A DNA stretch of 64,000 nt from Schmidtea polychroa (Eukaryota). Each line of letters starts with the position of its first letter. The first letter of the stretch is position 1. The notes beneath the pieces were generated by a model that saw nothing but the letters and a program-made list of their open reading frames with translations, did no database searches and was not told the DNA's origin. Below are positions 26,201 to 64,000 of the stretch, one piece after another. The DNA is taken from assembly GCA_044892525.1 (NCBI GenBank), contig CM097885.1, positions 19,966,001 to 20,030,000 of the forward strand, written 5' to 3'. Both the position numbers and the translations under genes were made by a program.

Positions 26201-27102
26201 TTTTAGATAAGTAGGTGTTTTAATGAAACTCCTACCACTTAATCTACTTAACCTACTTATTTTAGTTATGGTGAAATGTATTTCAGTAATATTTTTTATA
26301 TTCCAACTGCTTCCTAACTCAGTAATATTAGTAATTTTCTCATTTAATTCCTTAATGCCTTCATCAAAAAATGATGCAGTTAAAGGCTTTGCATAATTTG
26401 AGATATTATTAACCTTTATTTCCCCGTCTTTTTCAAATTCGATTGTTATTCCGAATTGAATTTTGACGGAGCATAATTCGTTAATAATATCTCGTAATTT
26501 TATTATTAGTTGTTCAGGAAATATTATTTCCTTTATATTTAAGTCACTTGTATTTAAGCTTAATATTTGATGGGTACCTCTTAAATCTTTTTGTATTATT
26601 GGAACATTTCCACCTATTTGTATTATATTTAATCCATCCCAAGAATCAAAGGAAGTGAATAATCCATCATTGGATTCAACAACCAATCCATCATCGGATT
26701 CAACAACCAATTCGACCTGGGATTCTACAACCAATCCATCATTGGATTCAACAAAAGGCAATCCGACCTGGGATTCAACAAAACGCAATCCGTCCTGGGA
26801 TTCAACATCTAATCCGTCCTGGGATTCAAAAGAAGAAGTATCTAATTTAATTTTTTTATTTGTATTATTTTTTTCTATAGTTGAGGGTCTTTTAAAAACA
26901 CTATATTTTTTAAAATTAAACCTATCTAAATGATTTTTATGTTTATTATAAAAAACGCTATATGTTACGGGGTCACTAGTCTTACATACGAGACATATAA
27001 AATAAGTTTTATTATAATATTTTTTCGTGTAATAATTCTCCATTATAGAATGTCAATTATTATCATGCTCTTTTGATGAACAATAATTTGGGTAAAGTAT
27101 AC
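23205..27102 (-). pseudogene. protein-primed family B DNA polymerase (Polinton pPolB), left-arm copy, disrupted
   Basis: FHNLKGYD (ExoII), YLKLDC (ExoIII), YIDINNLYG, KLLNNSLYGK, GDTDS, RPKCY, KAKGV, DDKR; split by frameshifts and in-frame stops. Confidence 0.92.
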
Positions 27103-28017
27103 CTATAAAATAAAATTTAATAAAAAAAATATAATTTAAATGAAATATTTTAATAAATGTTTACGCAAAAATTTGCAAATTATTATTATTTTACAAATTT
27201 TATTTACTAAAAAATAAAAATTTACTAATTTAAAAATATTAACATTTACTTAAATAAAAAATTATATTAAATTTCCTTTAAATTATAAAAAGTAATCAAT
27301 ACTTACATTGTAAATTTTCATTTCGATTTATTGACACATTGACATAATTTTTCTCTTTATTCGTATTACCTAAATTATTAATTAATTAAATCAATAAATT
27401 AAAAATTATGTTTACTTTTTCTTTTCAAATTTCCTTTAATCTTCGTTTTTAAATTGTCTTTATTTAATATTATCTAAATTAATTAATAAATTAATTAATA
27501 AATAAATTAAAATTTACCAAATTCCTGAATTTTTTCTCGGACATTCATAACGTTTTCTATTAAAGAATTCATTTTTAAAGGTTAATTATTTGTTAAATGT
27601 GACTAATGATTGATTATTGTTTATAGATTATTATTGTTTATAGGAACAAATTCTAACCAATCAAAATCAAGGAAGGGTAAGAAAAAATTAATATATTACG
27701 TTGCGGTATTTTAAAATTTAAATATATTTAAAAAACACATTTTGACGCTAAAGTCGACTTATGTAACAAAGACATAATAAACTTATTATTTACTACAAAT
27801 ATTTCACCTATCAAATACCTAACTAGAGATGATATATATTGATTGTTCATAAAAGCAAACTTAATCACAAATTTCTGTATATCCTACAATAATTATCAAG
27901 TAAATTTAAAGTTCTTGATAAAGTTAACTGGTTTCTTAGCTTATGTTTTTTTTAAAAAAGTTCATCAATGTGTAAATATTCTTAGAAAATTATTGAAAAA
28001 AATTATTTAGTCAAATG

Positions 28018-29621: not shown

Positions 29622-29659
29622 TTAAATCATTGCCATGTATGTTTAACTATTTATTCATT

Positions 29660-30060: not shown

Positions 30061-30061
30061 G

Positions 30062-33400: not shown

Positions 33401-34156
33401 ATAGACGATAATTTAATTGCAGCATTATTGAATTCAGATTCTATATGTTTAGATAGACCAAGTTACATTGGTCAATCTGTACTTGATCTATCTAAACTTA
33501 GAATGTATGAATTACAATATAAGGATTTGGAATCATTTCGCAATGAGTTTAATTGTAAAATTAATATCGTTGCAGGTGATACAGACTCTTTTTTCCTCGA
33601 AGTAATTAACTGTAAACTTGAGGTTCTTTTACCTGCAATGATTCGAGATAATTTATTAGATACTTCCAATTACAATATTTGTCATTCCTTATATAGTAAG
33701 AACCTTGATTCTGTCATTGGAAAGTTCAAAGACGAGAATAAAGGTCTTAAATATAAGGAATGGGTTTTTCTTAGACCTAAATGTTATAGCTTGTTGGGTG
33801 ATGAGGAAACAAAAAAGGCTAAAGGTGTAACATTGGAAGGTAGTGACATAAAACATCAGTCATACCTGGATTGTTATAACACTAACCAGATTTTTTCGGT
33901 TCCTCAGACTAAAATAACAAGCAAAAATCATCAAATTTTTACAATTAAAAACACTAAAATAGCACTAACTAACAAAGATGACAAAAGGGTTTGGGTGGGG
34001 AAAAATACTAGTCTTGCATATGGGCATGTAAGATTAAGTCAATTAAATATTGGAGAAATTGTTGGAGAAGAAAATGATGAAAATGTTGGAGAAATTGTTG
34101 GAGAAGATTTTGGAGAAGATGATATTAATGACATTATTTTATCTGATGAAGAATGA
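30440..34156 (+). pseudogene. Polinton pPolB, right-arm copy, 5'-truncated and disrupted
   Basis: Inverted near-identical copy of 23205-26948; lacks the start; TAA at 32084-32086; ExoI YAD lost. Confidence 0.92.
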
Positions 34157-34317
34157 TTTTATTAAATAAAATTTTATATCTATACTTTTGTTCTTTTTAT
34201 TTGTTTGGTAAATTTTTATGTTTGTTATGTGTCTAGTTATTTTTATGTGTTTAGTTAATGTTTATATGTTTTGTTATGTGTCTAGTTATTTTTATGTGTT
34301 GTATAGTATTTGGTTGA

Positions 34318-34385
<68 letters not shown>

Positions 34386-35140
34386 AATTATTATTATTAT
34401 TAATCTATAAAAAAATAGCTTAAAAAAAAATTTACTTAAAAAATTATTCCATTAAAATTTCCATTGAAAATTATCTTTAACAATTAATCTATAAAAAATT
34501 TCATTAAAAAAAATTACTTAAAAAAATATTTCATAAAAATTTTCATTAAAAAATTTCAATTCTCAAACACCTACTATTATTCCAACTTTTTGTTAATAAA
34601 TTTTAAACTCTTACTTTAATTACTTTAATTTACTTATTTAAAAATTATAACTTTAATTTACTTATTTAACTTTAATTTACTTATTTAAAAATTATTACTT
34701 TAATTTACTTATTTAACTTTAATTCGATTTTTTAGAACCATAATTTACTTTAATTGAAAAATTTGGACCATTATTTACTTTAATTTAAAAATTTACCACG
34801 TTTTTTAGTGTATACCACCTTTTACTATTGAAAATCATAGGACCAAGGTGACCCCTCACTATAGTCAGAAAAAATACTGGCCTTTTTCTATAGGACCTAT
34901 CTAAATGTATTGAAAAAAAAAATTTTGTATTGAAAATCCCAGGACCTAGGAGACCCCCACACTATAGTGTGAAAACAAAAAATTTGGACTAAAAATCCCA
35001 GAATGCAAAAAAAATGAGTTGGGAACAATTGCGTAATCAAAAAACGTCGACGGCAAAATTATGCAATCAAAAGTTGCAACATTTTTTTACCCCCCCCCCC
35101 CCCCCCCCCTATTGTTGCGGGGAGCCACTAACTACCTACT

Positions 35141-37474: not shown

Positions 37475-37765
37475 TGTTAGAAGCTATAACATTTAATTCT
37501 TCTGTCATCAAAATAAATTACTAAGACTATTAAATCCAAAATTATATTTCATTAAATCTGATTATATAAACAAATATTCTTGGGACATTTTCTAAATTTT
37601 AATTTCAACCAAATATCAACATACCATCGCATTCATACTTGAATTTCAATTTTATTAAAAATTATTTTATTTTAAAATTTCAATTATCATTTCAATTTTA
37701 ATATCTTAAAATAATTTAAGTTTCAATTAAAATTTTTACAAATTTTAATCATGAACTAATTTAAT

Positions 37766-40700
37766 TTAGTATTTTAATTTTAACTCCTCACATCCCACTT
37801 TTTTAAAATGTTTGATCTTCTCAACATTTCTGACTACCATCTTCCCATTTTGATCTTTAAGTAAGTAGCTCCGTTCATGTATTTTCTTTATCACTTTGTA
37901 CGGCCCTTCCCACCTTGCATCGTCTTTATTTCGAATTTCTTGTTTGATCAAAACCACATCTTCCATTTCAAAATCTCTCGCAGTTTTGCTTATTTTTGGT
38001 TTTAGTGTTTTATCCTCTATTCTCTTTTCCATATCTTCTCTATTTATTTCTTTATTCGAGTACAATTTCATTCTGTCGATTTTCCTCCCAAATATAATCT
38101 CTGCTGAGCTTACTCCCGTTGTTTTTTGAACTTTTGCATTTAAAGTATATTCTATTTCTGGCACTATATCAGCCCAGTTTTTCCTTCCTCCTTCATTCAA
38201 TGACGCGTTAATATACTCTCTGATTGTTCTGAATTGTCTTTCAATAATACCATTCGTGTTATGGTGATATGGGCTTGAGAAAATTAATTCAATGCCAGCT
38301 GCCTTTGCTAGTTCTTTTATACTTCTTGCTTCAAAGTTCTTCCCACAATCTACATGAAGTTCTTTTGGAGCTCCAAACTTTAATATTCATTTATTTAATA
38401 ACGTCTCACTAATTGTTTTTTCGTCTTGCTTGTTTATGGCCGTTAATGAGATGTATTTACTATAGTGGTCAATGATTCCGCAAATATATTTCTTTTTGTT
38501 GAACGTTTCTTTCAATGGCCCACATATATCCATATATATCTTCTCGAATGGTTCTGTGCTCTTTATTGTTTGAGTTTCCTCCTTTGTCTTGGTTGTTATC
38601 GTTTTCATTTTCTGACATCTTTCGCAGTTCTCAATTACCTTTTTTACTTCCGTTGCTAAATTTTCCATGTCGCAGTTATTCTGGATATATTTCGTTACTT
38701 TCTGTGCACCTGCATGGCACAGCAATACGTGTACTTCTTTTATCATCCTCTGTCTATTATCTGACGGTATCCATATTTTACCTTGCTTAGTTAGTACCGT
38801 GTTGTTTTCCATTATGAACTTACAATCTTTATTTTCTAACTTATTCTTTATTTCTTGGACCTCCATATTGTCATTTTGCCACTTGTTATATCCGCCTTCT
38901 GCTGTTACTGTTAATATTCTGGTTTTAATTTTGCCGGTTTTTGGGTCTTCGTGTTCCATCATACACTGTACACATGTTCCGCATGTTTTCCTGGATAGCA
39001 TATCCGCGTTTGTATGGCTTGTTCCTTTCCTGTATTCCATTTTAATATCCAGGCTGCTTAAATAGTTGATTTATGCCTGGAATTGAGCAGTTATTGGTTT
39101 CTTCGTTGTTACCATAAACGTAATAGCTTTATGGTCCGTTCTCAGTACGAATCTCTTACCATATAAGTAATGGTTGAAATGTTTACAAAAATAGTATATT
39201 GCCAATAATTCTTTTCTGGTAATGCAGTATCCTTTTTCGTGGCTGCTCATCGCATGTGAACCATATGCAATGACATGTTCATGTCCTTTTTCATCCTTTT
39301 GCGAAAGAACTGCTCCAATAGTATCGAAGCTCGCGTCTGTGTCTAATATAAATTCTTTTCTGAAATCTGGAAATACCAATACTGGGGCGGTTATCAATGC
39401 TTCTTTCATTTCCCCGAAAGCCTTTTCACACATCTCTGTCCATCTTATTTTCTCATTGTTTTTTCCGCATATTCTTTCTAGTGCTCTTGCCTTCTTTGCA
39501 TAGTCTTTTATGAACCGTCGATAATAGTTACAGATACCCAGAAAGCTCCTCAGATTCTTTACACATTTTGGCTTTTGAAATGATTGTATTGCTTCTATCT
39601 TAGTATTATCTGTTTGTATGCCGTCTTTATTTATTATGTGTCCCAGAAACTTCACTTCTTTTCTAAATATTTGACATTTTTCGGGGTTCAATCTTAGTCC
39701 TGCTGTTGCGATCTTCCCTAGGACTTTTTCAAATATGTTATAATGGTCTTCTTCTGTCTTTGTGAATATTAGGATGCCGTCTAAATATACCATCACTCCA
39801 TCTTTCCACAAATCTTTCAATACTTTCGTCATTAATTCTTGAAATGTTCCTGGTGCCGCTGCAATACCGAACGGCATCCTGTTAAAACAGAACTGTCCTT
39901 CTTTTGTTGAGAATGCTGTTTTCTCTTGAGATTCTTTATCTAACTTCACTTGGTAATAAGCATTTCCCAAGTCGATTGAGCTAAAATATCTGGATCCGTG
40001 TAGGATGTCTAAAATTTCATCTACATTTGGCATTGGAAATGCTTGTCTTTCTGTTATCTTGTTTAATTGTCTGAAGTCTAGACAAAGCCTGATGTCTTTT
40101 TTCTCTTTCTTCCATACACAAACTAAAGGTGTGTTCCACGGTGAATTACACTTCCTAATTATTCCGTTGTTTTCTAGATTTTTTATTGCTTCCTCAATCT
40201 TGTCTTCCAAATTTATTGGCTGACGTCTCGGTTTAATCATTATTGGCTCTCCTTTCGTGATGATCTTATGTTTTATCAGATTGGTACACCCAATGTCCCA
40301 TTTATCTGCCATAAAAACATTCTTGTTTGCCTGAAATATTTCTAACAGTCTCTTATTTCCGGTAACCTTTAAAACGTCGATGGCATGACGTAATCTTTCT
40401 TCATCTGTTATAATCCGCCCAAATCTAGCTTCTATTTCGCAAATGAAATCACTACGTTTTTCATGTTCTCTATTATACATTTCAATTCTATACCAAATAA
40501 CCTTTGTAGTTCTACTCCTCCAATAATTTCTGGTATTAAATTCTTTAATATAATGAATGTTACATTTCTTTCAATACTGCCCATTTTAACATTGATGCTT
40601 ATTTTACCCATAGTTTCTAATCTACTGTTGTTTGCACATCTTAGCGATTCCCTTGTTTCTAATATTTCGATATTTTCTAATCGATCAATTACAGATTTAG

Positions 40701-41181
40701 CCATCACATTAATTCGCGCTCCTGTATCCAATAAACAATCTACTTTCCGCCCTTGGATATCCAGTGCTGTACTCGGTCTACCTTGCATTATATTATATGT
40801 TATTACTGGACTTTTTTGTTCTTCTACTGACAAAATATTCTGCTCTCTAGTATCTTCTACAATTTCATTAATACACACGTCTCCATTTTTCTTGAGGAAT
40901 TTGTAAATTTTCTCTATAGTTCTTTCCTCGTGTTTTACTAATTCATTTACTTTACACTCCTCTTTAAATTTTTTCTGAATTTCCTTATCATTCGACTTTT
41001 TGATTTCTACACTACTATTATTAATATCACGTTCAAAAACACTACAATCTTTATCAATCATACAATCATCATACATACTTAAATTACACATACCGTTAGC
41101 ATTCATTCTTTGGTTGAAATCAATATTACTTAGTAAATTGCTCCGATCAATGTCCCGTTTGACGGAGCGTGCTCGTTTGGG
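37766..41181 (-). pseudogene. pol: gypsy pol (protease, RT, RNase H, integrase), disrupted
   Basis: LLDTGA; RMPFG and YLDG (canonical YLDD altered); DTDAS, KELLA, TDH; HHCC; WEGPY; frameshift near 40480, stops at 39071-39073 and 38387-38389. Confidence 0.92.
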
Positions 41182-42215
41182 TCATTCTCCCTGTTATACT
41201 CGTCTGGCTGGCTTGACTGTTTTGTATTCATCATCTCATCATCAGACTCGATAGCTGCAATATCTTTTCTGTTATATTGTTGGTTTCCCCATTGTCTTTG
41301 ATGTACGTTCCTTGATTGATACATATCTTCCCTTTGTTGATAGGTATTTCTTTGAATTCTTCCTCCTGACATCTTCCTTTGGTCTCGATCTCTTCCTTGA
41401 TTTCGTCTTTCCATATTTGTGTAGCACTCTCTTTCTTTGTGTCCTCGTGCATTGCATCTATGACATTTGATTGTTGGGCATTCTCTTCGTATGTGACCTT
41501 CAACACCACATGCATAACATTGAAATCTTCTTTTTATATTACATTCTCTGCTACTGTGTCCCGGTTTTTGACACGTCCAGCATTCTATCACTTTAATTCT
41601 TGTCTCTGGTTTCCATTCGTTGATTTTTCTCTTCGTGGCTCCAACTTGTACTACATCTCTATAAGTTCTTCCTCCAGTTGTAGGTCGTATTGATCTCACC
41701 GTGTTTACTTGTTCAATAACCTTGTTAACTTTTTCTATCTTCTTTATAGTTTCTTTAATTTGTTCCGCCGTTTTGAGATCTTTCATTTCGATTTCTTTCC
41801 TGACTTCTTTATCTTTTACACAATGTGTCAATAAACATTTCTGAATTTCTTCTTCATTCCAAGTGTGTGAGGCCAATTTTTTAATCATTTTTGATATTTT
41901 CTCTATAAATATTTCCGCTGATTCGTTACCTTGCTCGTAGTTTAAAGCTTCTCTTAAGTCATCAATCAATGACGTTGGTCGATGAAAAGCTGCTCTTAAT
42001 TTCTGTTCAACGGTTTTACCTTCTGCGGTTTCATATTCTTCAATCAAAGTCCTGTCCAGAAGTGTAATAACTAGTACCATTTGGGTCTTCACTGGTGTCT
42101 TCGTTATTTCAAAGAACCTCTGACATTCTTTGATAAATAATTCGAGGTCATCTCCTCTGTGGAATTTTTCTGGAAGTAATCTTCCAATAAGCAGATCCGT
42201 TGGAATGGTCGCCAT
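41130..42215 (-). CDS. gag: gypsy Gag with three CCHC zinc knuckles
   Basis: CWTCQKPGHSSREC, CYACGVEGHIRREC, CHRCNARGHKEREC; start uncertain (ATG at 42215, or 42248 within the LTR). Confidence 0.88.
   Translation of the reverse strand: MATIPTDLLIGRLLPEKFHRGDDLELFIKECQRFFEITKTPVKTQMVLVITLLDRTLIEEYETAEGKTVEQKLRAAFHRPTSLIDDLREALNYEQGNESAEIFIEKISKMIKKLASHTWNEEEIQKCLLTHCVKDKEVRKEIEMKDLKTAEQIKETIKKIEKVNKVIEQVNTVRSIRPTTGGRTYRDVVQVGATKRKINEWKPETRIKVIECWTCQKPGHSSRECNIKRRFQCYACGVEGHIRRECPTIKCHRCNARGHKERECYTNMERRNQGRDRDQRKMSGGRIQRNTYQQREDMYQSRNVHQRQWGNQQYNRKDIAAIESDDEMMNTKQSSQPDEYNRENDPNEHAPSNGTLIGAIY
41140..41181 (-). promoter_or_regulatory. -1 ribosomal frameshift signal (gag-pol)
   Basis: Heptamer C CCA AAC (41181-41175) directly after the upstream stop of the -1 pol frame; 6-nt spacer; stem GCTCCGTCAA...TTGATCGGAGC (41168-41140). 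Confidence 0.8.
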
Positions 42216-42891
42216 GTTAGAAGCTATAACATTTAATTCTTCTGTCATCAAAATAAATTACTAAGACTATTAAATCCAAAATTATATTTCATTAAATCTG
42301 ATTATATAAACAAATATTCTTGGGACATTTTCTAAATTTTAATTTCAACCAAATATCAACATACCATCGCATTCATACTTGAATTTCAATTTTATTAAAG
42401 ATTATTTTATTTTAAAATTTCAATTATCATTTCAATTTTAATATCTTAAAATAATTTAAGTTTCAATTAAAATATTTACAAATTTTAATCATGAACTAAT
42501 TTTATTTTAGTATTTTAATTTTAACTCCTCACAGTGATATTTTAGTTTTACCGGTGTTTAAATAATCAATTAGGACTTTGATAAAAAAGAGAAATTGTAA
42601 TAAATAAATGACGGAAATCAAGTCTTTTAGAATTGAGTTGGATTTAACTGTTGACCATGTCAAAAAATGATAATATCAACGCAGTTTCAAAAGCAACAAA
42701 ATCCTTAATGAAATGTTTGCCAAAATCATGACAAGATATGCTTACACTAAACAACTGGCGACGCTCTGATATGGGTCACCCGATTTTCAAAAAAATATTT
42801 AATTAAAATTAAATTAAAATGAAACTATTATAATACTAACAACATAATTACAACTATATTTATATACATACAAACAAAATTAAATTGCCGT

Positions 42892-43467
42892 TTATTTAGG
42901 AGGACAGTATCTACTAATTAATCCCCAATAGATTGAAAGGATATTAGTATTTTCGTAATCCTGACGAGATAACCATAATCGAAAATCCAGATAATTGATT
43001 TTTTGTTCGAGAGACATCCCTCTCCGTTTCCGCATGTCCACCTTAATATTTCCCCACCAACCTTCAGCCTTGTTGGTATGCACACCAGTGACTGGATCTT
43101 TGAAAAATAGTTTGTGGTTAACCGACAAATGAATATAATCAAACCCATCAAGCATTTCAAGATTGTAATTTTCTGTCCAGTACGCTGGCCACCGATTCGA
43201 ATAAATAATTGAATTAGGTCTTATGAATTTTTTTATGATATCAATAAGGGTCTCCCTATTTCGTATCATGACAACTTGACCAAATCATTTTCCGCTGCCT
43301 CTTTCTGTACCTCCAAATAACCATATTTCTCGATACCACCTACCCCTGTAGTATTTGGGCTTTTTCGAAATCAACGTTTCATTGATTTCCACGATGATTC
43401 CTTCTCCACCGATTTTCCTTTCCTCTTCACTTAAATCACATAAACAGACGGAACAAACCTCATACAA
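42892..43467 (-). pseudogene. Merlin/ISXO2-like DDE transposase, decayed
   Basis: IGGEGIIVEINE, WLFGGTERGSGK, IRPNSIIYSN, VNHKLFFKDPVTGVHTNKAEGWW; internal stop and D>N changes at catalytic positions. Confidence 0.85.
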
Positions 43468-43809
43468 ATAATTCTGCCGATCTGCTAAAGATTTTAATAT
43501 ATGTGAAGTTTAGTTGATTATTATTATTACTACAATATATATTTTGGTCTTTTTTATTAATTATACATATTGATTTTCTATTAATTTTAAAATACCGATT
43601 TTTGAAAATTTACCACTACTGTTTTATAACATAATATTTATTCAAGAGATTTCTAATAGGAACATGCAGTTGTAATAATATTACGAGTTTAAGATATAGT
43701 ATTGATACAGATAACATACATGTTTACTTCACCTCACTCCACAGACAAACATTTTCACATCAGTTATCAAACGTCAAGATCACAATGACGTGGTTATGTA
43801 AATGTTTAT

Positions 43810-46404: not shown

Positions 46405-47751
46405 TTAGGAAATATTCTGAGCATAATGGACTAATACTAAATAGTATAACCAATAAAAACAATTATATAAAAGAAAACATGCTGGGAAGAGAAATCGGCT
46501 ATAACTATCAATATCAGAATCTTCAGTTGGTGTTGTCTTGATTGTTTTCTTGCCCTTGTGAGCATCCAGTGCGTGATTAATCAGTAAAGATTCAAGTTCC
46601 GAACAAAATTCCAACCTATTTCTGTCTAGAGTATTTTGTTCCTGGAGATGAAAGAATTGCTGTCTTTGACAAGCTGAGCACCATCTAGCTAATTCATGTC
46701 TCACAATTTCTCGGACGTCCTTTTCCCAACCGTTAGATTTTTTCTTTCTGGCAAGAACACTGGCAACTACATATTCCAATAGAGCTCCAATCACAAACAT
46801 AATACATGCGATTACCCATACGTCAATAGCTTTTATATAACTGACTCTTGGTAAAGTAGACGATATTCCGGTAGCTTGTGTCAGCATACCCAATAGCGTA
46901 ACAAGACCCAAAGTAACACGAGCAGGAACTGAATCGACATTGATCCAAAAGTTTAACCATGACACCATCACAATCAATATACTAGGAACAAATGTACTAA
47001 CTAAATAAGACCCCAATTGTCTTTGTAATAAGAATTTCGCTTTTAAACAAGTATATTTCCCAGTTGACGTACTCGAGTCATTTGTACAGTCAATAGTGCT
47101 GACTTGATGAGGAGAATTAAATTCAGATATTTGAAGACCAGTTGAGATTAAGATCGGATCCTCTTTTCTCCAAGTGAATTTTAATTCATCTAACGTGTAA
47201 CCATAACTGCCGATATCCATCAAGCATTCTTGACTGTCCATTGGAAAGGTTTGGAGATTCATTTCACAGGAAAATCTCATCGTTATTTTCTGACTGTAGA
47301 GAATTCTCCCATTAGGACGGAGTCGCATTAGATAATTTGGAAGAGTCATTTTATGGACATAGCCTTCTTTTCCATTCCGGAAAAACAGATCAGGCAACCA
47401 CAATATCTTTTTCAAAGACGGTGATACGATATTATTATTGAATGATCGAAATTCTTCTAAATTTTCCCAAGTCAATCTCGGATCTGTCCATTCTTGTCGG
47501 AGGTAGACGTCTGTTGAATATTCCATTTTTGTAACACTAACCGAATTGATAGCCAATACCTTCATATAAACCAATACATTTGTTTGATAAATTTCACTTG
47601 GACGTTCATCCTTTTTGTAACGTTTCTTATCGACTATCCTTTCCATAATTAAATCCCTCTGTTGAGCCATGGGGCTTTTTCTTCTTGGAATCGAGAGCAA
47701 TCGAAGAGAATTCAAAAATAAAATCAAGACAATGAAAAAGAACGAATTCAT
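46405..47751 (-). CDS. Cys-loop ligand-gated chloride channel subunit (lophotrochozoan GluCl-like), single exon, 448 aa from first ATG
   Basis: Signal-peptide-like N-terminus, WLPDLFFRNGK, CEMNLQTFPMDSQEC, SVPARVTLGLVTLL, four TM; paralog of 2720-4036. Confidence 0.94.
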   Translation of the reverse strand: MNSFFFIVLILFLNSLRLLSIPRRKSPMAQQRDLIMERIVDKKRYKKDERPSEIYQTNVLVYMKVLAINSVSVTKMEYSTDVYLRQEWTDPRLTWENLEEFRSFNNNIVSPSLKKILWLPDLFFRNGKEGYVHKMTLPNYLMRLRPNGRILYSQKITMRFSCEMNLQTFPMDSQECLMDIGSYGYTLDELKFTWRKEDPILISTGLQISEFNSPHQVSTIDCTNDSSTSTGKYTCLKAKFLLQRQLGSYLVSTFVPSILIVMVSWLNFWINVDSVPARVTLGLVTLLGMLTQATGISSTLPRVSYIKAIDVWVIACIMFVIGALLEYVVASVLARKKKSNGWEKDVREIVRHELARWCSACQRQQFFHLQEQNTLDRNRLEFCSELESLLINHALDAHKGKKTIKTTPTEDSDIDSYSRFLFPACFLLYNCFYWLYYLVLVHYAQNIS

Positions 47752-49700
47752 TGTTGATTTCAAAAAAATCCTCTAGGATTTCTGTAGGAATCAATCGGAA
47801 TAAAGAGATCACTTAAATAAAAATATAATTAGTATTAATTTCATCTCTTGAAAATTTTATTTGAAAAATTTAATAGTAGCACATACAGAATTTTCTCTGC
47901 CATTCTACACAGTGAAGCAGAAAGCTAATTATTTATTTTCCATCAAAAACAATCCTGACGTCAGAAAATTTTCCTGCCTAGGAAATCTGTCTCAATGCGA
48001 ATAAAAATCCAGAGAAATTCTCTACCAACTCACCAGAATGGGAGTTTGCAGAAACCAGCCCGTTTAGGCGCTGAGTAAAAGTACGATGAAAAAATTTGAA
48101 ACTTTCGTTGTGTCGAAGACTTAAAAACGGAAAAGGGGAAAAGGTAATTTCTTCAATTAAAAGTACACAAGAAATTGTATAGTGAAAACAAATTATTCAC
48201 GAGGCTTTATTTATTAATGACTGTTTAATAGTATTGAAAATAAAAAATTAAAATTTTTGTTGTAGCAAAATAAAATTTCGGGGGAAAAAATAATAAAAAA
48301 AATAAAATTTACACAATTTAAAGTAAATAGAAAAATATGAGTTGTATAAATTAATTAAAAATAATTTGAAAAATTAAAATTAATATCTAAATAAAAAATA
48401 TAAAAGTAATAAAACAATTTTTAATTCATGGAGATAAATAAAAAATCCAATTTATTTAATTTATTAAAATTATTATTAAAATTAAATTATTAAAATTATT
48501 TAATTTAATAATTTTAAAATTATTTATCAGATCAATCATCAAGACAAAACTCGATTGTAAAAAAAGGAACTCGCAATGCCAAATAAGAATATTATATAGA
48601 ATTAGAATGTAAAATCAAGTGTCTCCTTGAAGAAACCTCTGGGGAAAAAAGAAATTACCGGGAATCATCGATTGGGGAATACATTATAAAAGCACGGTGA
48701 ATTTATTTTATACTTGTCACTTTCGGAACGAAGGACACAAGTTTTAAATTTTGAATTGGTATATACTAGCCCGATTTGATATTTTAGGATTCTCTAACAT
48801 GACATAGATACTTAGGATTCATAATAAATTCCTCAAAAGTCTCTTATCATCATTAATAAAGGTGATTTTGAATATCCATTCTTTATGAACAAATCAAACA
48901 ATTTTTCAACACTTTTTAACATTACCCAAACTTTTATTTAATACATCATTGTTATTATTATAAGAAAGCGCCAATCAAACATTCTTTTCACGATATATCT
49001 CAACAGTTTTCAGTAGGTAGTTAGGGCACCTCGGACGCAATTACCTCTCCCGGGGGAGGGGTCTGTGGCAACTTTTGATTACGCAATTGCAGCAACTTAC
49101 TTTTTTTTGCTTTCTGGTATTTTCAGTACAAAAATTTTTTTTCAGACTATAGTGAGGAGGTCTCCATGGTTCTGGGATTTTCAATACAAAATGGCAGTCT
49201 TCAATAAAAAAGCATGGATTTTTCAGACTATAGTGAGGCTTTTTTTCAATATTGGGTTTTTCAATACAAAAAGCATGATAAATTAAGGTCTCAGGATATT
49301 TTCAATACAAAAAGGCGGTCTTCAATAAAAAAACATGGTAAATTTTAGAATTACAGTAAATAATGTGCTCAGATTTTTGAATTAAAGTTAATTAAGCGCC
49401 AAATTAGTAAAATAAGGGCTAAATTTTTAATTAAAAGTAAATTATGGTTCAAAAAATTAAATTAAAGTAAATTAAGGTCCAAATTTTAAAATTAAGTAAT
49501 CAATGGTCAATAATTTTAATTTAAAATTAAATAAGTAAATTAAAGTAATAATTTTTAAATAATTAAAGTAATTAAAGTAAGATTTTAAAATTAATTAACA
49601 AAAAGTTGGAATAATAGTCGGTGATTGAGAATTGAAATTTTTAAATGAAAATTTTGATGAAATAATTTTCAAAGTCAACTTTTAATGGAATAATAATAAT

Positions 49701-49976: not shown

Positions 49977-52900
49977 TTAATCTTCGTCTGATAAAATAAC
50001 GTCATCAATGTCAACTTCTTCATCATCTTCTCCAACATCTTCTCCAACAACTTCTATATCATTTAATTGACTTAATCTTACATGGCCATATGCAAAACTA
50101 CTATTTTCCCCACCCAAACCCTTTTGTCGTTCTGCGTTAGTTAGAGCTATTTTAGTATTTTTAATTGTATAAATTCGATGGTTTTTGCTAGTTATTTTTG
50201 TTTGAGAAATCGAAAAAATTTGATTAGTGTTATAACAATCCAGGTATGACTGATGTTTTATGTCACTACCTTTCAATGTTACACCTTTAGCCTTTTTTGT
50301 TTCCTCATCACCAACAAACTATAACACTTAGGTCTAAGAAAAACCCATTCCTTATATTTAAGACCTTTATTCTCGTCTTTGAACTTTCCAATGACAGAAT
50401 CAAGGTTCTTACTATATAAGGAATGACAATTATCGTAATTGGATGTGTATAATAAATTATCGCGGATCATTGCAGGTAAAAGAACCTCAAGTTTGCAGTT
50501 AATAACTTCCAGGAAAAAAGAGTCCGTATCACATGCAACGATATTAATTTTACATCTAAACTTATTGCGATATCTTTCTATATTTTTATATTGTAATTCA
50601 TACATTCTAAGTTTAGATAGATCAAGTACAGACTATCCAATGTAACTTGGTCTATCTAAACATAAAGAATCTGGATTTAACAAAGCGGCAATTAAATTAT
50701 TGTCGATTTTAATGGATTTTTTAAACGAAGGTTTTGAAGAATATTTAACTAATTTACCGTCGGTAGTAAAAAGACGAAGATTCATTCTTCTCTTTAAATT
50801 TTCTACAGTTTTACCATATAAACTGTTATTTAATAATTTGTAATAATTTTTGTCTAAACTATTTGTACTTTTTGCTCTTAATTCGGTATTAGTGTCTATA
50901 TATTTTTTAAAATTTGGAGATTGTTTAAATCTTACTAATACTTACTAATACTTACTAATACTTACTAAATCTATTTACGCGCGTAACTTTAACACCAAGT
51001 GTCAAGTATAATTTTAATAATCTTCAATGAATCACATAATTAGATTTTGGAAGATGAGTTAATAACAATTTTTCAACCTTTGACCCAACAGGTTTCATTT
51101 TTTCAGCAGCTACAGGGAAATCATCCAACTTATCATGAAGCTCAGAAGGAATTACAAGATCAACTTCAACAGTGTATCCATAAGACAAATATTCAAGATT
51201 TAAATTCCTACGTTCGTCCATTATTAAATCAAATCCATCAAGAACCCAACTAAATCCGCCACAAGGTAATGGTTGACTTAAAGCCCAACCGTAAAGATTA
51301 TTAATATCTATATAAAGTAACTCGGTGTTTTCATCGGTTTTTACATAATGTTTATTTACAAAAGTTAGACCTTCTCTTAATCCACCCTCATAAAGGCTAA
51401 ACATTTCGTTTTCAGTTATCAGTTTAATCGGTTCATCTAAAGACATTAATGCAGAAGACCAAGACATACCAGGAATTCCGAAGTAATTCAATGGTTCTAA
51501 CCTATTATTAGCAATAGATTTCAAACGAAATTGTTGGAAGAAATCGGCCAAAAGAAAACAATCAAGTTTTAAATATATCATCATGTAGTCTAATAAAGTC
51601 ACGCAATTAGTTTCAACCCAAATCTCCTGAGCTTTTTCATACTCAAGTTCCGTGACACCTTCCCAGATCGGTGGTAATTCATAAGTAGTGTTTGGAGAAT
51701 ATCTAAAGATGTAGCGAAATTGTATGGAAAGATTCCTTTTTCATAAACAATAGTGCCAGTAAAAACAGAATTAGTTAAAGGTAAAGTATTCAAAGTTTTG
51801 ACTGCTTTAGCTAAAGAATCATTAACAAATTGATAAGAATCAATGAATCTTAAGCTAATTTTTCCTAAATGCGCAATCAAAAAAATAAATTTTTCAGTAG
51901 TGATAGGGATACAGCCTTAAGTCCAATTCTTAAATTTATTTAAACCATATTTAAGTATATGGTGCATATTGTATCCCTTCAAGTTGTGAAATACGATAGG
52001 CAAAATTTTATTAATTTTCCTATTTATGTTGCATGTGCTACAAGCAGCACCCAAGTATTTCCCAGTAAAATGATCGTGATCTCTAACAGGATCGACGATA
52101 CATTTCATGCAAAGGTAACATTTATCAGCATTATTAAATTGTTGTTGTTCAATATTAGTTAATTTCACTATAGGTTTCCTAGCCATTTTATAATAAAAAG
52201 GAAGAACTTTGTTTAATGCTATATCCTCTATAGCACTTAAAAACTTTCGACGCAATCGAAACCTATGAACTGTTGATAAGATTTAGATCCGTCGAAGTTA
52301 TTAATAAGTAAAAGACCAGCAGATATTGGTATGTGACGTTGAAAGTGAATATTGTCGGAAGGTAAAATAGCCTCAAAATCGGCATAAACTACAAATGTTT
52401 TCGACCAGTCAGTAAACTGTAATAATTTATTTTGAGGGAACGTGTAAAGAGTCGTTCCTAACTGATTTCCTTTACACAATACTTCATGTTTGTCCAGTGC
52501 GTGTTTATATCTAAACCCGTTCAAACACCCTGGCACTATAATGAGCGTATTTGTGTAGGACAACTAGTGTTTATGTGGCAATTCATTAACCTATTTAAGT
52601 TGCTTATAGCTATGTTTCCTTTATTTAATAATAATAAATTAATTATTTTTCATGTAAAACTTTGGAACGATGTATAATATCCAAATATGGATGTTTTAAT
52701 ACATAATTTTCGGTTAATTGTCTAGTATTGTCATAAGTAAAAACATTAATTATTAAACCAGGATTTTTGGCTTCAAATTTCCTAACATAAATTAATTTCA
52801 TGGGTAAATCTGACGAGTCGTATATGAGGTCAGATAAATTATAACTTGATGTCCTATTTCTGAATTGTCTAACAACCTCATCATATTTTAAAATAGCTAA

Positions 52901-53874
52901 AATGCTATATAAAAACACGAATCATCAGTGTTTTTTATATTTATTAAACACTTATTATTTTTTAGATAAGTTGTTTCTAAATAACTCCTACCACTTAACC
53001 TACATAACCTACTTATTTTAGTTATTGTGAAATGAATTTCGGTTATATTTTTTATTATCCAACTACTACCTAACTGTGTTATGTTTGTTATTTTTTCGTT
53101 TAATTCTCTAATGCCTTCGTCAAAAAATGACGCAGTTAATGGTTTCGTGTTATTAGAGATATTATTAACTTTTATTTCCCCGTCTTTTTCAAATTCGATT
53201 GTTATTCCGAATTGAATTTTAACGGAGCATAATTCGTAAATAATATCTCTTAATTTGATTATTAACGTTTCTGGAAATATTATTTCCTTAATATTTAAGT
53301 CGCTTGTATTTAAACTTAATATTTTGTGGGTACCTCTAAAATCACGTTGTACTATTGGAACATTTCCACCTATTTGTATATTATTATTTAATCCATCCCA
53401 AGAATCAAGGGAAATGCTGTCTAATCCGTCTGGGATTCAACAACCAATCCTTCCCAAGAATCAAGGGAAATGTTGTCTAATCCGTCATTGAATTTTTAAC
53501 AACCACTCCATCCCAAGAATCAAGGTAAATGCTATCTAATCCGCCTAGGGATTCAACAAAAGGCAATCCGACCTGGGATTCAACATCGAATCCGTCCTGG
53601 GATTCAACTACGTCTAATTTAAATTTTTTATTTGTGATATTTATTTCTACGGTTGAAGGTCTTTCAAAAACAGTGTCTTTTTTAAAATTAAACCTTTCTA
53701 AATGATTTTTATGTTTATTGTAAACCGTAATATATGTTACGGGGTCACTAGTTTTACATATGGGGCATATAAAATAAGTTTTATTATAATGTTTTTTAAT
53801 ATAATAATTTTCCATTATAGAATGGCAATTATTATTATGTTCTTTTGCTGAACAATAATTCGGGTAAAGTATAC
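49977..53874 (-). pseudogene. Polinton pPolB, third copy, many frameshifts
   Basis: Colinear with 23205-27102; retains VYADFE (ExoI) and GKYLGAAC; 10-bp CTTACTAATA expansion at ~50931-50968. Confidence 0.9.
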
Positions 53875-54599
53875 CTATAAAATAAAAATTTCAATAAAAA
53901 TTGACTTAAAAATTTAATAAAAAATATTATAATTTAAATGAAATTTTTAATAATTTTCCTAAATATTGTATGCAACCAATCAGATTTTAATATTCGATAT
54001 ATATGAAAAATTTAATTAACTAAATTTAAAAAATTGATTAATATAAATAGTATCCTATTAGAAGAAAATAGTACATCTGTTATAGGTATGGTATGTAAAC
54101 CTCCTATTCAGTTCCTTCAATATAATATGTACTATTTGAAATATTCTATTACTTATTCATTCAAGGTATTTTTTATTGATTGATTTAAATTATTAATTTT
54201 TGTAGGAACCAGTTAATTTAAAAACCTATCAATTCAATATTCAAATTGGAGATATTGGGGAAGAAGATAGGAAAAATCTTGGAGAAATTCTCAGATTAAT
54301 TAATAAAGAAATGTATTTTAATGAAAAATTTACATTTACCAACTGTGAAAAAGGTTGTAAAATAGATGAAGGTAAAAAGTCAAAGTTCGAATACTTATTC
54401 AGGGAGTCAAGATAAATGGAGCTATAATTAAACCAATTGGGAAAATTACAAATGTTGTTGAATAAATTTATGTATTTAAGTGCTCTTTTTATTGTTATTT
54501 AAATATTTTAAAGTTATCTTTAAAATTGTTATTTTCGCATACATTATTTAGTAAAATTATTAAATTTAAAATTCAATTTCAATTAAAAAAATTTTTTTT

Positions 54600-55050
54600 T
54601 GCGAGGGATTTCCCCTTATCATTACTAAATATCATCTAAAAATATGAGTGATTTCCTCTTATCATCAAAATAAATTTGCGAGAGATTTCCCCTTATCATT
54701 ACTAAATATCATTAAAAAATACGAGGGATTTCCTCTTATCATTACTAAATATCATCATGTAAAAATGTGATGGATTTCATCTTATCATTAATATATATAT
54801 CATTAAAAAAATATGAAATTTCTATTTATCATTACTAAATATCATTAAAAAAATACGAGGGATTTCCTCTTATCATTAATATATCATTAAAAAATACTAA
54901 AGAGATTTCATCTTATCATTACTAAATATCATCTAAAAATGTGATGAATTTCATTTTATCATTAATATATCATTAAAAGATATGAGAGATTTCTCTTATC
55001 ATTACTAAATATCATTAAAAAAAATACGAATGATTTCCTCTTATCATCAA
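54600..55050. repeat. ~40-bp minisatellite (GAGGGATTTCCTCTTATCATTACTAAATATCATTAAAAAATA)
   Basis: About 11 degenerate units. Confidence 0.85.
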
Positions 55051-55559
55051 AAAAACTGCTTAATATAAATTTATAAAAAATATATTGATAAAAATTGAAT
55101 AAAATTTAAATAAAAAATTATTAATTTAAAAAATACTTACAGTTGTTTTGATTTAATTTTTTCATAATGGGCATTTTTTTCGTTAATTTTTTGACATTAT
55201 TTTTGGGCATAAACATTTTCTTTATCTAAAGAAAATATTTTAATTAAAATAATAATTAAAAAAAAATCAAAAATCTTACAAGCTTTGGTATTAGTAAATT
55301 ATGACAAAATGAAAAAAACTAATCATTTATATACTATTGATCCTTCTTAATAATTACGTAATAATTAAAGGATTATGTTTCTTATTTAGATGATTGTTGT
55401 CATTAAAGATAGTTTCATGTGCTATTTTAATCCTTAAAGATAGAGGATTATCATCATTACATAATTCAATTAACAACAAATTATTTACTCTAATATTACA
55501 ATATTCTTTCATTAACATCATTTTAAATACAAAAAACAATACATTTTCATTATAAAAAT

Positions 55560-55938
55560 TTATTTCATAGACTTTAACCAAGCCAAACAATGTTGTCCAC
55601 ATGTTTTTGTCATTGGAATTTGGTAACGTATTCGATTGTATTCAATTGGCATGGACATTGATTGTAGTTTATTGATTATTATAGGCGGATATTAGAATCC
55701 CATTAGATCAAATGCATATATTTTGTCTGGTTTTACATGTATTGCAAGTCAATGTTCACCATTCAGATTAGCAGATTGAGTATTTACAATTATTGCTTTG
55801 TTGACATCTAAATAAGGTATTTTGTCTAATGGGAAAACACCTGAAAATTCTTTTCCTAGTAATTTTCTTCCAATAATTTGTATCTGAATAGAACTAAATT
55901 AATAAAAATTAAATTATTTAAATTATTGCTTACTTCAT
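55560..55938 (-). pseudogene. Polinton adenain-like cysteine protease, with a 40-nt intron (55933-55894)
   Basis: Spliced MNSIQIQ..FSGVFPLDKIP..IIVNTQ..GEH*LA..AFD..YQIPMTKTCGQHCL; contains stops and a frameshift. Confidence 0.82.
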
Positions 55939-55969
55939 ATTTGATTAATTGATTTTCTATATTTGGTTT

Positions 55970-56140
55970 ATATTATACCAAAACAGTACGAGTAGATGTA
56001 ATTTGAATTTCCTTTTCAAAAACTTACAGAAACAGCTTCAGTAAGTGAAGATAGAAATTTAATATTTAATCGTAAATTTCCACTTGGTGCTAACTGACTT
56101 TGATGAAGATCAAAATCCGGTGCCAATACAAATGCTTTTT
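55970..56140 (-). pseudogene. Polinton major capsid protein C-terminal fragment
   Basis: FVLAPD....SGNLRLNIKF..L.EAV pattern; position between minor capsid and protease. Confidence 0.6.
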
Positions 56141-56149
56141 CGGTAAACT

Positions 56150-56647
56150 CAACATCGTAATAATATTGTATAGTTAATCGAATTGTATCAAACTTTATTT
56201 TTCTATTATTTGGAGGAATAGTGATTTGATTCAAGTTTTCTTTAAAATTTATTTCTTTTTCTGAAAATCCTAATTTTTGTGCTTCTTTAATACTATCGAA
56301 TTCTACTTTAAAAGGAAATTATTTTCAATTAATGTTCAAAGTATTTCCATCAATATATATTAAATAAAATGGAGAGTCGTGACTGATTGTATATTCATTT
56401 TTTCTTGGTTAAAGTAAAAGTATTCATAACTTGTATGTAATACACTTTTACTGTATTTAACATTTGAATTATTGTAAAAATGAAAATAATTATACACAAA
56501 TGTAAAGTCCATGAGAGCTACTTACCATTCACCATCCAAGTAAATAGGATTTTGAAGTTCGACATTAAATTTGGTAGATTCATTATTTGGATGAGTCTGA
56601 GGACAACTATTTGAAGGCAAATTCACATAAAAATCTTTTTTAATCAT
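56150..56647 (-). pseudogene. Polinton minor capsid (penton)-like gene, N-terminal part
   Basis: FYVNLPSNSCPQTHPNNESTKFNVELQNPIYLDGEW*VALMDF. Confidence 0.65.
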
Positions 56648-57145
56648 TTATTTTACGAAAACGTAATGTCAAGTGCGTTTTTGTATCTTTACTAAATTTT
56701 ATTAATTTTCCATTATCATCACATATATTGATTTCAATGTTGTTTATAGAAGAATTAGAAATTGGTAGATACATTGGATTCTTCATTTCTAATTGCACAA
56801 TTTCCTCTTGTTCGTATTTCTTTATCCAAATAGATTTCAATAACGGAACTCTTACATATCCAATTGTTGATGATGATTAAAAAATTTTGGAATTTTTGAA
56901 CCAATAATTTCTTTCTCTGTAAATGTTTGTTTCTTTAATCCCAATGTTTTTGTTAAATTTTTATCAAAGGTTATTGATGAAATGTTATCAGCAAGACTTA
57001 TTTTAACCAATTCATTATTTTGTATTTTAAAATCTTTAAAGGGAATAACTTGGAGTTCTTGTTCATAGAATTTACTAGTGATTGGTTTGTTTTCATGATC
57101 AACTATCACATACATGACAGGATTCTGCTTTGTATCAATTTTCAA
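56640..57145 (-). pseudogene. Polinton minor capsid (penton)-like gene, C-terminal part
   Basis: NPMYLPISNSSINNIEINICDDNGKLIKF..THLTLRFRK. Confidence 0.65.
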
Positions 57146-58300
57146 AATTTGATATACTTCATCACTCCAATTATTATCAAAGGTTTTGATGAATGGTGAA
57201 GAATTGATTTTACTAATTCTTACATGATCACCAACCTTGTATTTCGGTTTATTGATTTTTTCTATGTTTGTTTTTTAGTAAAATCAACAGGTATTTGTCT
57301 TTTTAATCCTCTATGCGGCGAATGATTGTAAATGAAAATAATTTTTGGCAAAACATTTATCCAAGTTTTATTACCTTGATATACAAAATATTTTTTCAAT
57401 CTTTCTCTTTAAGTTCGATTAAATCGTTCTACATGAGCAGCATTGAACTGAGAAAATACGGAGTAGTGGTTTATTCCTTTGATAACCTCTTTAACTTTGC
57501 TGTTATAAAATTCTTTACCTAAATAAAATATTTAAAAATTAATTAATTAAATTTAATTACCTAAATCGGTTTGTAAATTAATAGGTTTGCCATCTGCAAA
57601 CATTTTTTTTATCGCATCAGCCATTTCATTTGCAGATTTAGTTTTTGTAGGAACAGCACGAGCATATCTATTAAAAACATCAATACAAGTCAGAATATAT
57701 GTGTACCCCTTGTTAATTTTTGAATAAGGTATCATTTCCATCAAATCCATTTGCCATACATCATTGTTTCCAATTGTTTTGTATGGTCTTGTTGGAAATC
57801 GTTTCAACATTGGTTTATTTAAACCAGGGGTGCCCACTAATGTTTCTAGGAGAGCTACATTCACATCCAAAATGTGTATGCGATCTACTTTTTTAATACT
57901 TACATAATATTTAACAAAATTAAATTAAACTAAATAACATTTTGGAAATGGTGAAATCAAAATTAAAAAATGTTATTTATTATTACCATAGAAATGGAAC
58001 ACAGAACATGAAAATTGGCAAAAAATTTAAGCATAAAACAGAAATTTTATATAAAATCTAAGTTTATATAAAAAATATTTTTTTATGAAGATCTACTAAA
58101 AAATCCTTCGCGATCTACCGGTAGATCGCGATCGACCTTATGGGCACCCCTGATTTAAACTATATGCTAATTGATTAGATAACCATTTCTGAGTTTCTTT
58201 CTTTGAATTATTCACTCGTTTTGTTAATTTTTATCTACACCACCAAAACCATTTGAATCTTTTGGGTTTGTCCATATTGTTTTGAACTTTTTTTCTTTTA
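57146..58300 (-). pseudogene. Polinton retroviral-type integrase, with a 42-nt intron and a hAT MITE insertion
   Basis: NPKDSNGFGG..WLSNQLAYSLNKP, WQMDLMEM, YILTCIDVF, LQTDL|GKEFYN, VERFNRT-like, YKVGDHVRIS. Confidence 0.88.
57825..58152. mobile_element. non-autonomous hAT element inserted in the Polinton integrase
   Basis: TIR CAGGGGTGCCCA / TGGGCACCCCTG; perfect 8-bp TSD ATTTAAAC (57817-57824, 58153-58160). Confidence 0.9.
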
Positions 58301-58439
58301 TTTTCTCGTTTCACCTTTTTCACTTTTTTCATTTTTATTTTGTGATACGTTTCCTTCATTATTACAACACGTTGTCAAAATATTAAAATCTACAATATTT
58401 TTATTTGGTAATGAACTCTTGATACCTATTAAGAACTGA

Positions 58440-58715
58440 ATGATGAGATTGCACTAATTGCAGATAAGACTATAGGAATTAATGCACCCAAGAACCCTCA
58501 TTTTTGTTTATATATTATAAAAGTGATCTTTTATGTCTTTGCAATACTAATCTTTTACCTTTAGTTATATTTACATTACCACGGACAACATTTATAATAA
58601 CTTCAAGCAAATCATCAATAACAAATGATGGAAAAGACTGTAAAATCGATATTCGTTTCGAATTTGGTGCCTTTATTAAAGCATTAAAATATGGCAAACT
58701 CCGTTCAAATTTCAT
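58440..58715 (-). pseudogene. small conserved Polinton protein (uncharacterized)
   Basis: ALIKAPNSKRISIL..IDDLLEVIINVVRGNV..L plus a downstream GFLGALIP-like segment; lies between ATPase and integrase. Confidence 0.55.
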
Positions 58716-58889
58716 TATTATTATTAATTAACGCGACGGATTGTTTATAATTTGATCCACTTCTTGATTTGTTTCTTATTTTTCGTACTTTTTGTTTTCT
58801 TTGTACGTTTTGTTTTCTTGTTAATTTTTTTCGAAACACTTGGAAGATTTTTAACAACTACTTTTTTAAATGACATGATTAATTAAATT

Positions 58890-59461
58890 AACTTTTCAGT
58901 TTTGTTTATAAATCGTAACACCGTTTATATAAAAAATATCAGTTCTAATACGCATATCATTTGGACATTGTTGTGTAAAATCAAAAAATAAATATCCATG
59001 AGGAATTTTTGTCGCATCTTGGAATGAATCTATCAAATATTTTCTATTATTTGAATAAGCTTGTGGACATTTAAATTACGAGTTCTATGACTTCCACCTT
59101 GATGAAAAAGATTTTGTGTTATGAAAATAACTGTAACTCCACAATGTCTACTGATTTTTGTAAATAAATTATTAAAATCCTTTTCTTTATTTGCTTCCTG
59201 GTACAAATCGTCGATAATAATAACATCACCTTGGCGTAATCTAGATGACCAATTTTTATCAAATCCTTTAATTATTGTCATTTTTAATTTACAGAAACCG
59301 CTTTGAGTCAATCCATACTCTTCATCTGCACCTCGATACCAATATGTTTTATTAAATTTTGATTTAAACATTTTTGATTGTAAAAAATTACATACAAAAA
59401 AGGTTTTTCCGCTTCCACTAGGTTCTACAATTTGATATACCGCGTCATTTCTTAAGTCCAT
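58890..59461 (-). pseudogene. Polinton A32/FtsK-like packaging ATPase, decayed
   Basis: Walker A-like EPSGSGKT, Walker B IIIDDL, FTKISRH..IFITQNLF, PHGYLFFDF..RIRTDIF. Confidence 0.88.
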
Positions 59462-59714
59462 TTTAATTTAAATATTTAATTTATTTTTTTATAATTAGAA
59501 TAATTAGAATGATTAGCAACATTAATTATAGAGGAAGATGTGTAGTAAATGGAATAAAGTTCCCATCAGGAAAACCTCAACATGTTGTGGACAGAAGTGG
59601 AAAATATCCAATTTTATTCTTCAAGAGCGGGAAATGTAGGAGAAATGTAGGAGAAATGTAGGCACTTGCCCCCTCCCCTGAATTTTCCAAACCATTCTAT
59701 TTTTCGATTAATTT

Positions 59715-63140: not shown

Positions 63141-63248
63141 ACCATGAACTTCATATCTTCTACTAAACATCTCTATAATAAATGATTCTTATCATTTTTT
63201 GATATTATTCTAATTAAAAACAAAAAGTAATAAAATAATTAATTTAAA

Positions 63249-63860
63249 ATGGAATTAAGATATGATGCACTATATCAAATTTTAGAACCCAATGAAAGTG
63301 GAAAAACGTTATTCATTACGTTATTTTTTACGACCAAACATGTTTAAATCAAATTCAATAAAATTTATTGGCATATAGGTGCAGATGAATAGCACGATTA
63401 AACTCAAAGCAGTTTCTGTAAATTATAAATGACAATAATTAAATGATTTTATAAAAATTGGTCATCTAGATTACGTCAAGGTGATGTTATTATTATTGAT
63501 GATTTATATCAGGAAGCAAATAAAGAAAAATATTTTAATAATTTATTTACAAGAATTAGTAGACATTGTGCAGTTAGTTATTTTCATAACGAATCCTTTT
63601 CATCAAGCAAAACTCATAAAACTCCTAATTTAAATGTACAATATTTGATTATTTTCAAAAATCCTCGAGATTGAACAATTATTGATTTTCTTGTAAGACA
63701 AGCTTATCCTAATAATAGAAATTTTTTAATAGAATCATTCCAAGATGCAACAAAGTTTGATATGGATATTTATTCTTCCACTTTACACAACAATGTCCTG
63801 ATGATATGCCTATTAGAACAGATATTTTTAATGCAAATGATGTTAATGCTTAATTAAAAT
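63249..63860 (+). pseudogene. Polinton packaging ATPase, second copy, decayed
   Basis: MELRYDALYQILEPNESGKT, GDVIIIDDLYQEANKEK, IFKNPRD; inverted homolog of 58890-59461. Confidence 0.85.
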
Positions 63861-64000
63861 CAGCAAATGGTAAAGTCATTTAAAAAAGTAATTGTTAAAA
63901 ACTATCGTTCCAATTGTTTCCAAAAAAGTTATTAAGAAAACAAAACGCAGTATGATAAGTAAGAAACCAACTAAGAAATGGATGAAATTATCAACATTCT

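Follow-up and report, generated by a model that had tools for sequence, protein, structure and literature searches.

Identity of the Element and Its Surroundings

The locus raises the question of where its protein-primed family B polymerase (pPolB) begins: at the first apparent ATG, Met 53815 on the minus strand, or in upstream exons that would be joined to the gene by splicing, as the first-pass annotation proposed. Within the window, which here means the whole 64-kb stretch of DNA analyzed, the surroundings consist of AT-rich animal DNA with Cys-loop channel genes, one Ty3/gypsy element, and three pPolB copies. The studied copy is a dead Polinton on the minus strand, in which pPolB, integrase, ATPase and protease genes were found on one strand. 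Downstream of Met 53815, the rest of pPolB (50031..53815, minus strand) is present as nine tblastn segments interrupted by frameshifts and stops, and the statements made here therefore concern the family while it was active; protease, integrase and ATPase occupy 55560..59461 (minus strand). The polymerase profile PF03175 was matched with E-values of 3e-24 (copy 1) and 2e-4 (a fragment of the studied copy), the retrovirus-like integrase by rve (E 5e-9, 57556-57924), the A32-like packaging ATPase by Pox_A32 (E 1.6e-4, slightly below the curated cut-off; 59036-59461), and the adenovirus-type protease by Peptidase_C5 (E 2e-5) in the relative L127, which is 95% alike to window 55382-56134. For double jelly-roll major and minor capsid proteins, three candidate frames of L127 were compared with Pfam profiles and had no match. 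One end of the studied copy was located by its AGTAGG terminus (49012..49024, plus strand) and a second end was not found; in one type A relative, the ends are inverted and ~1.1 kb long. On the profile matches of the four genes tested, the studied copy is a Polinton; the absence of introns from core genes, which belongs to the usual description of Polintons and is not a strict criterion, does not appear to apply to it, to judge from the DNA.

Several neighboring features were recorded as well. A second ATPase region of the Polinton is inverted and diverged (window 59064-59562 and 63146-63999), followed just past the window end by a pPolB fragment of a third family (L125); a small basic open frame without Pfam match lies between integrase and ATPase (58518-58727, minus strand). 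Two intronless open reading frames for Cys-loop ligand-gated ion channels (2720-4036 and 46405-47751) are ~70% alike in DNA; the Ty3/gypsy LTR retrotransposon (37475-42533) has LTRs 98.7% identical and a gag-pol broken by stops; and a transposase fragment (42895-43509, minus strand) is ISXO2-like, of the Merlin type.

Candidate Exons and Introns Upstream of Met 53815

The sequence features on which the spliced N-terminus had been proposed held up on inspection. The acceptor at 53875/53874 reads TTTTATAG/gt, with the exon beginning at 53874 on the minus strand; the 59 nt from there to the ATG at 53815 are open and in frame (ILYPNYCSAKEHNNNCHSI), base for base as described; the phase-1 donor at 55141/55140 reads ACT/GTAAGT, with the intron beginning at 55140; the intron given as ~1.27 kb measures 1266 nt, and its phase-1 join would yield an in-frame TGT codon for Cys (split T/GT); and the 54-nt intron-like segment at 55279-55226 has GT-AG borders. 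The synonymous changes relative to copy 1 (CCG/CCA, GAA/GAG) were confirmed, but in this stretch copy 1 (L061) also carries two non-synonymous changes and one stop.

Read along the minus strand, the predicted pPolB promoter of the type A leader would have its TATA box at 55326..55331; in relatives, the same box lies ~51-52 nt before the first donor. Exon A (55280..55312), a putative non-coding first exon without in-frame ATG, has a start guessed from a TCATT initiator-like site; it is followed by intron 1 (55226..55279; 54 nt, GTAAGA..TTTAG; 41-54 nt in relatives), which is assigned to a putative 5′ UTR because the segment upstream of it offers no usable ATG. Exon B (55141..55225; 85 nt) encodes a low-complexity leader rich in M, K and N, with the first ATG at 55216 and 76 nt from this ATG to the donor, and ends in T (phase 1). 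Intron 2 (53875..55140; GTAAGT..TATAG, phase 1) contains a tandem repeat of 11 copies of ~43 nt (54595..55060; repeat family D7). Its donor and acceptor occur in cis, 843-1300 nt apart, in 8/10 and in 6/13 loci; the background frequencies are 0.23 per kb for GTAAGT and 0.08 per kb for TTTTATAG.

Exon B of the studied copy is weak by itself, as 10% of shuffles are stop-free, and support for it comes from the other copies. Contigs of four runs, taken as RNA by guess, were aligned on 50000-56500; among the 15 of 19 joints displayed, none coincides with 55141^53874, with the 54-nt intron, or with the intron of the nested gene described below. Exon B is scarcely covered by these contigs, and one of them covers 54203-54450.

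Coding Constraint on the 59-nt Extension

In 47 of the 64 distinct strings, the distance from the acceptor AG to the Met is exactly 59 nt, a regularity beyond chance. The strings are drawn from 126 loci that overlap and are related and hence are not independent; most of the other strings have indels or come from the third family. The ATG of the Met is retained in 60/64 distinct strings, and extension lengths of 56 and 62 nt, which keep the frame, were also seen, besides several private frameshifts. The extension (53816..53874, minus strand) bears out the coding role claimed for it in the first-pass annotation: pN/pS ranged from 0.14 to 0.44 in 13/13 pairs, which include the third family (~70% identical). 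Among 39 distinct indel-free extensions, the common alleles (seen at least three times) comprise five synonymous and five non-synonymous changes, compared to 18% synonymous sites (p 0.022); the control frames gave p 0.91 and 0.67 in the same allele test. Rare alleles look neutral (7/32 synonymous, p 0.36), and common and rare alleles do not differ significantly from each other (Fisher p 0.096). In the common-allele test, the 19 codons that follow the Met gave a result like that of the extension (p 0.025). Judged by these substitution patterns, the 59-nt stretch that precedes the apparent ATG is coding sequence.

A Predicted Zinc Motif Across the Junction

All seven close relatives with a readable N-terminus (L158, L159, L160, L163, L166, L167, and P0014) share a C-x5/6-C-x3/5-H-x3/6-C motif, for which zinc binding is predicted from the residue pattern; its best Pfam match is a zinc finger below threshold (E 0.005). 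The extension of the studied copy encodes the last three ligands of this motif (C..H..C), the first Cys being the would-be split codon. In the unspliced frame, Gly occupies the position of the first ligand and no ATG lies upstream; the phase-1 join would give Cys at x6 spacing, as in P0014, L158, L159, L166 and L167. The junction Cys of pPolB is likely the first Cys of the predicted zinc motif, a role that the first-pass annotation had missed.

The relatives also point to an internal position for Met 53815: 6/7 of them have a Met four residues after the motif, matching Met 53815 as an internal Met, and P0014 continues beyond the homologous Met in an alignment that spans the extension (42% over 72 aa, E 1e-16). 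In six metagenome loci, selected from the best matches (five show 42-50% identity to P0014 in their best segment), a Met of their own precedes the first Cys by 2-7 residues without interruption of the frame. A second motif, C-x2/3-C..H-x2-H, follows motif 1 in these six loci and in P0014; its predicted counterpart in the studied copy (C-x2-C..H-x2-H; 53702..53767, minus strand) lies downstream of the internal Met 53815. The double zinc pattern was found in 7/80 loci; the rest are mostly distant or have matches that stop short of the N-terminus. A search with the 71-aa N-terminus yielded no protein of similar length, and region 30-110 of P0014 matched P0002 only.

Two Candidate Leader Families on One Acceptor

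In type A copies, the leader varies in length and sequence and tends to keep its phase. Among the 39 type A loci, 13 without an anchor or a donor were left unscored; exon B is in phase 1 in 19 of the 26 scored copies, with lengths from 45 to 226 nt, and out of phase 1 in the remaining 7/26. Counted by distinct exon B length, 11/18 are in phase 1 (p 0.014); among stop-free exons, a subset picked after the data were seen, 16/17 copies and 10/11 distinct lengths are in phase 1 (p 1.3e-4), and both p-values are optimistic in that the copies share descent and independence is overstated. A T directly precedes the donor in 25/26 type A copies, which may be plain inheritance. The leader sequence is not conserved and is repeat-expanded, reaching 16-75 codons in stop-free type A copies; in L238-L248, exon B has grown by in-frame repeats of six or seven codons, each with a Met at its start or inside it, to at most 75 codons.

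The homology between copy 1, which belongs to the type B sister family, and the studied copy stops ~60 nt upstream of the acceptor. Further upstream, type B has a leader of three exons of 55, 57, and 63 nt, all in phase 1 and stop-free in 44/65 loci; the 44 are mostly near-identical young copies, a few of them included twice, and the remaining 21/65 failed the site match, had no leader, or carried an indel. In copy 1 (27102..27572, minus strand), the leader exons lie at 27572-27518, 27473-27416 (frameshifted), and 27369-27307, and the acceptor exon begins at 27102. The type B leader is stop-free in 17 of 20000 shuffles, and 6/8 differences between the type B leaders of L087 and L026 are synonymous (p 0.0006). 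Type A and type B leaders have no BLAST similarity to each other; their last bases at the donor may be related. In the third, fragmentary family, 11 loci inspected over 1.5 kb showed no leader.

Type B elements have the form of ~14.5-kb palindromes whose arms are 99.7% identical; each arm holds a single uninterrupted polymerase frame of 1301 codons and no other long ORF. Their ends read AGT..ACT, with 6-bp target duplications at 3/3 loci. Polymerase-only giant palindromes of this kind were observed at window 22176-35140 and in the pairs L121/L122 and L123/L124, with dozens of inverted pairs among the 150 matches listed; palindromic loci are up to 99.9% alike, and the palindrome in the window is older and rearranged, with a hairpin at 29215-29627 and an extra terminus at 30105. 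The palindromic Polinton derivatives are likely the product of fold-back replication, integrated by the integrase of a helper.

A Nested Antisense Gene in Intron 2

Intron 2 holds a second gene on the strand opposite to pPolB, with ~130 codons in two exons. Its exon 1 (54037..54165, plus strand) has 44 codons in relatives and lacks an intact start in the studied copy; a 40-nt GT-AG intron in phase 0 (54166..54205) separates it from exon 2 (54206..54460), which has 86 codons in L058 and is frameshifted in the studied copy. A CCAAT box upstream (53976..53980, plus strand) is also present in the third family. The 44-codon first exon together with a 39-41-nt intron recurs in 11/42 rows; the gene is present in the third family at 48-79% identity and absent from type B loci. 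Exon 2 has matches in two outside proteins (E 7e-13 and 4e-4); the nested protein had no Pfam match (best E 0.011), no usable Atlas match, and no match in 80 metagenome loci, and a single-sequence fold of exon 2 reached pLDDT 36. This conserved two-exon antisense gene inside a pPolB intron is new here and had escaped the first-pass annotation. As a guess, its product could be a replication cofactor such as a DNA-binding protein. The far-upstream location of the polymerase promoter is likely due to the presence of the nested gene on the other strand of the long intron.

Relatives and the Origin of the Intron

In a quick tree of 32 rows, 18 fell into one clade (SH-aLRT 100), which splits into a metagenome group with the Met beside the motif (SH-aLRT 96) and a group with the studied family, P0014 and P0044 (98). 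The N-termini of P0014 and P0044, seen as amino acids only, read like translated short phase-1 introns. In the sister metagenome group, L162, L166 and L167 have short GT-AG segments just after the zinc motifs, with in-frame exons; the exons between these segments are multiples of three in L162 and L167. Scans for the DNA around P0001, P0002, P0007, and P0014 found nothing in viral contigs or, with a single query, in metagenomes. On the quick tree, a gain of the intron in this subclade would be the simpler reading, since intact vertebrate elements are intron-free: according to the available text of PMC8097293, the genes of 134 such elements are without introns, in accord with Kapitonov and Jurka (2006) as cited there.

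A Probable Spliced Leader and Its Alternatives

Coding constraint on the extension, conservation of phase, and the Cys needed at the junction make it very likely that the N-terminus of pPolB came from an upstream spliced exon, as originally suggested; for splicing of the leader by the host spliceosome in active ancestors, a reading taken from DNA, we estimate a probability of roughly 0.86. Transcription would begin at the TATA box that lies behind the protease gene; after removal of the introns of 54 nt and 1266 nt, translation would start in exon B, making Met 53815 internal. The leader exon would provide the start codon and the T of the split TGT, the first Cys of the predicted zinc motif; it could act as an exchangeable spacer whose sole requirements are an ATG, phase 1, and a T at its end. 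In the palindromic sister family, which has the polymerase only, another leader, made of three exons, would be joined to the same acceptor.

A local bidirectional promoter serving the nested gene as well, with pPolB starting at Met 53815 and the acceptor and extension reduced to relics or 5′ UTR, would account for the CCAAT box at 53976 and an AT-rich TATA-like sequence ~100 nt upstream of the acceptor, and for gene callers beginning P0002 and P0013 at the homologous Met; one putative-RNA contig also runs 14 nt past the acceptor into the intron, which is below the 31-letter bar and may be DNA or pre-mRNA. This is improbable: constraint on the extension equals that on the codons following the Met, most of a motif translated in relatives falls within the extension, the homologous Met is internal in relatives encoding the whole motif, and type B, without the nested gene, nevertheless retains the acceptor and an in-phase leader. 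Translation from a non-AUG codon without any splicing could draw on the unspliced frame, open for six codons upstream of the extension in the studied copy and for 13 in L122; since these open codons are a polypyrimidine tract, Gly replaces the first ligand, and the in-phase leaders of two families would be left unexplained, such a start is most improbable.

If splicing is accepted, its main purpose could have been the addition of a basic nuclear localization signal (NLS), an idea that goes back to the basic, possibly NLS-like leader of the first-pass annotation; exon B has 7 K+R in 25 residues, and basic residues also cluster in the second type B exon. The count is reached by 17% of base shuffles, the leader varies freely in length and sequence (16 to 75 codons of unrelated repeats), the sister family has an unrelated leader, six relatives have none, and in P0002 and P0014 a basic motif with the look of a classical NLS follows the zinc motifs; the NLS role is unsupported and, as the main purpose of splicing, unlikely. 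A common origin with the adenovirus E2B splice would accord with the proposed derivation of adenoviruses from Polintons (available text of 10.1101/2024.03.18.585575) and with the two-exon ORF of adenovirus pTP and the 5′ exons common to pTP and Pol mRNAs (available text of PMC11304566). The sister subclade encodes the motif beside its own Met, intact vertebrate elements lack introns (PMC8097293, available text), and the apparent junction of P0014 lies two codons away from that of the studied family; inheritance of the junction from a common ancestor is highly improbable.

Comparison With Known Systems

In adenovirus E2B, an upstream exon supplies the first few residues, the introns span genes on the opposite strand, and the leader consists of a few conserved residues. 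The studied Polinton would resemble E2B in a distant promoter and in short 5′ exons joined to a large coding exon (PMC11304566, available text). The adenovirus-like spliced polymerase of the first-pass annotation stands as a likeness of architecture, but only as an analogy: in six relatives the motif follows their own Met after 2-7 residues in an uninterrupted frame, the terminal protein (TP) of adenoviruses is a separate gene, and the variable repeat leader contrasts with the short adenovirus leader. A separate pTP gene sharing its leader exon with Pol, combined with absence of an integrase, would define an Adenoviridae E2B unit; unlike these, the uninterrupted sister copies have one 1301-codon frame, and an integrase is present.

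The elements agree with animal Polintons/Mavericks (adintoviruses) in PF03175 pPolB, rve integrase, A32-like ATPase and C5 protease, and, in the type B sister family, in AGT..ACT ends and the 6-bp target duplication. Animal Polintons carry a TP-vOTU-pPolB polyprotein (available portions of PMC8502044; 10.1101/2024.03.18.585575). In contrast to vertebrate Polintons, the polymerase described here appears to need splicing for its start and for a zinc ligand, and an antisense gene is nested in the intron. The available text of the structural preprint 10.1101/2024.03.18.585575 contains neither "splic" nor "zinc," and pPolB splicing is unmentioned in the accessible parts of PMC8502044, 10.1101/2024.03.18.585575, 10.1101/2023.08.22.554363, and 10.1101/2024.03.25.586562; the titles and abstract openings of the papers listed in literature searches report no spliced animal pPolB leaders or palindromic Polintons. 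Leader exons of this kind may already be annotated in Repbase, the 2006 paper, or supplements. The introner-containing Polinton-like elements of dinoflagellates (PMC11957031, available text) also have spliceosomal-type introns inside the element; introners, however, are intron-generating transposons mostly inserted after integration, whereas the introns studied here are family-wide and appear to be under selection. In a planarian, Polintons are de-repressed after smedwi-2 knockdown, according to the available part of PMC8532177.

Implications for Polinton Biology

Polinton polymerases are annotated as a single ORF from the first ATG. In this subclade, such a start likely cuts off the conserved zinc motif, so that catalog entries and models of the structure would be cut short. 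Close relatives, some with the intron and some lacking it, form a compact case for intron gain, and with many young copies in uninterrupted frames the junction is easily tested by RT-PCR. As a tentative extension, and a doubtful one at present, the phase-1 acceptor may serve as a docking port at which the choice of leader rewires the polymerase to new promoters, which could have enabled the origin and spread of the mirror-doubled polymerase-only satellite; replication would then hang on one host splicing event, which could restrict activity to certain cells as with the P-element intron, and the nested gene could encode a replication cofactor that the satellite borrows from full elements. Family-wide introns under selection would imply nuclear Pol II transcription and dependence on the host spliceosome in the active life of these elements, and nuclear transcription and splicing bear on whether Polintons live as nuclear viruses like adenoviruses.
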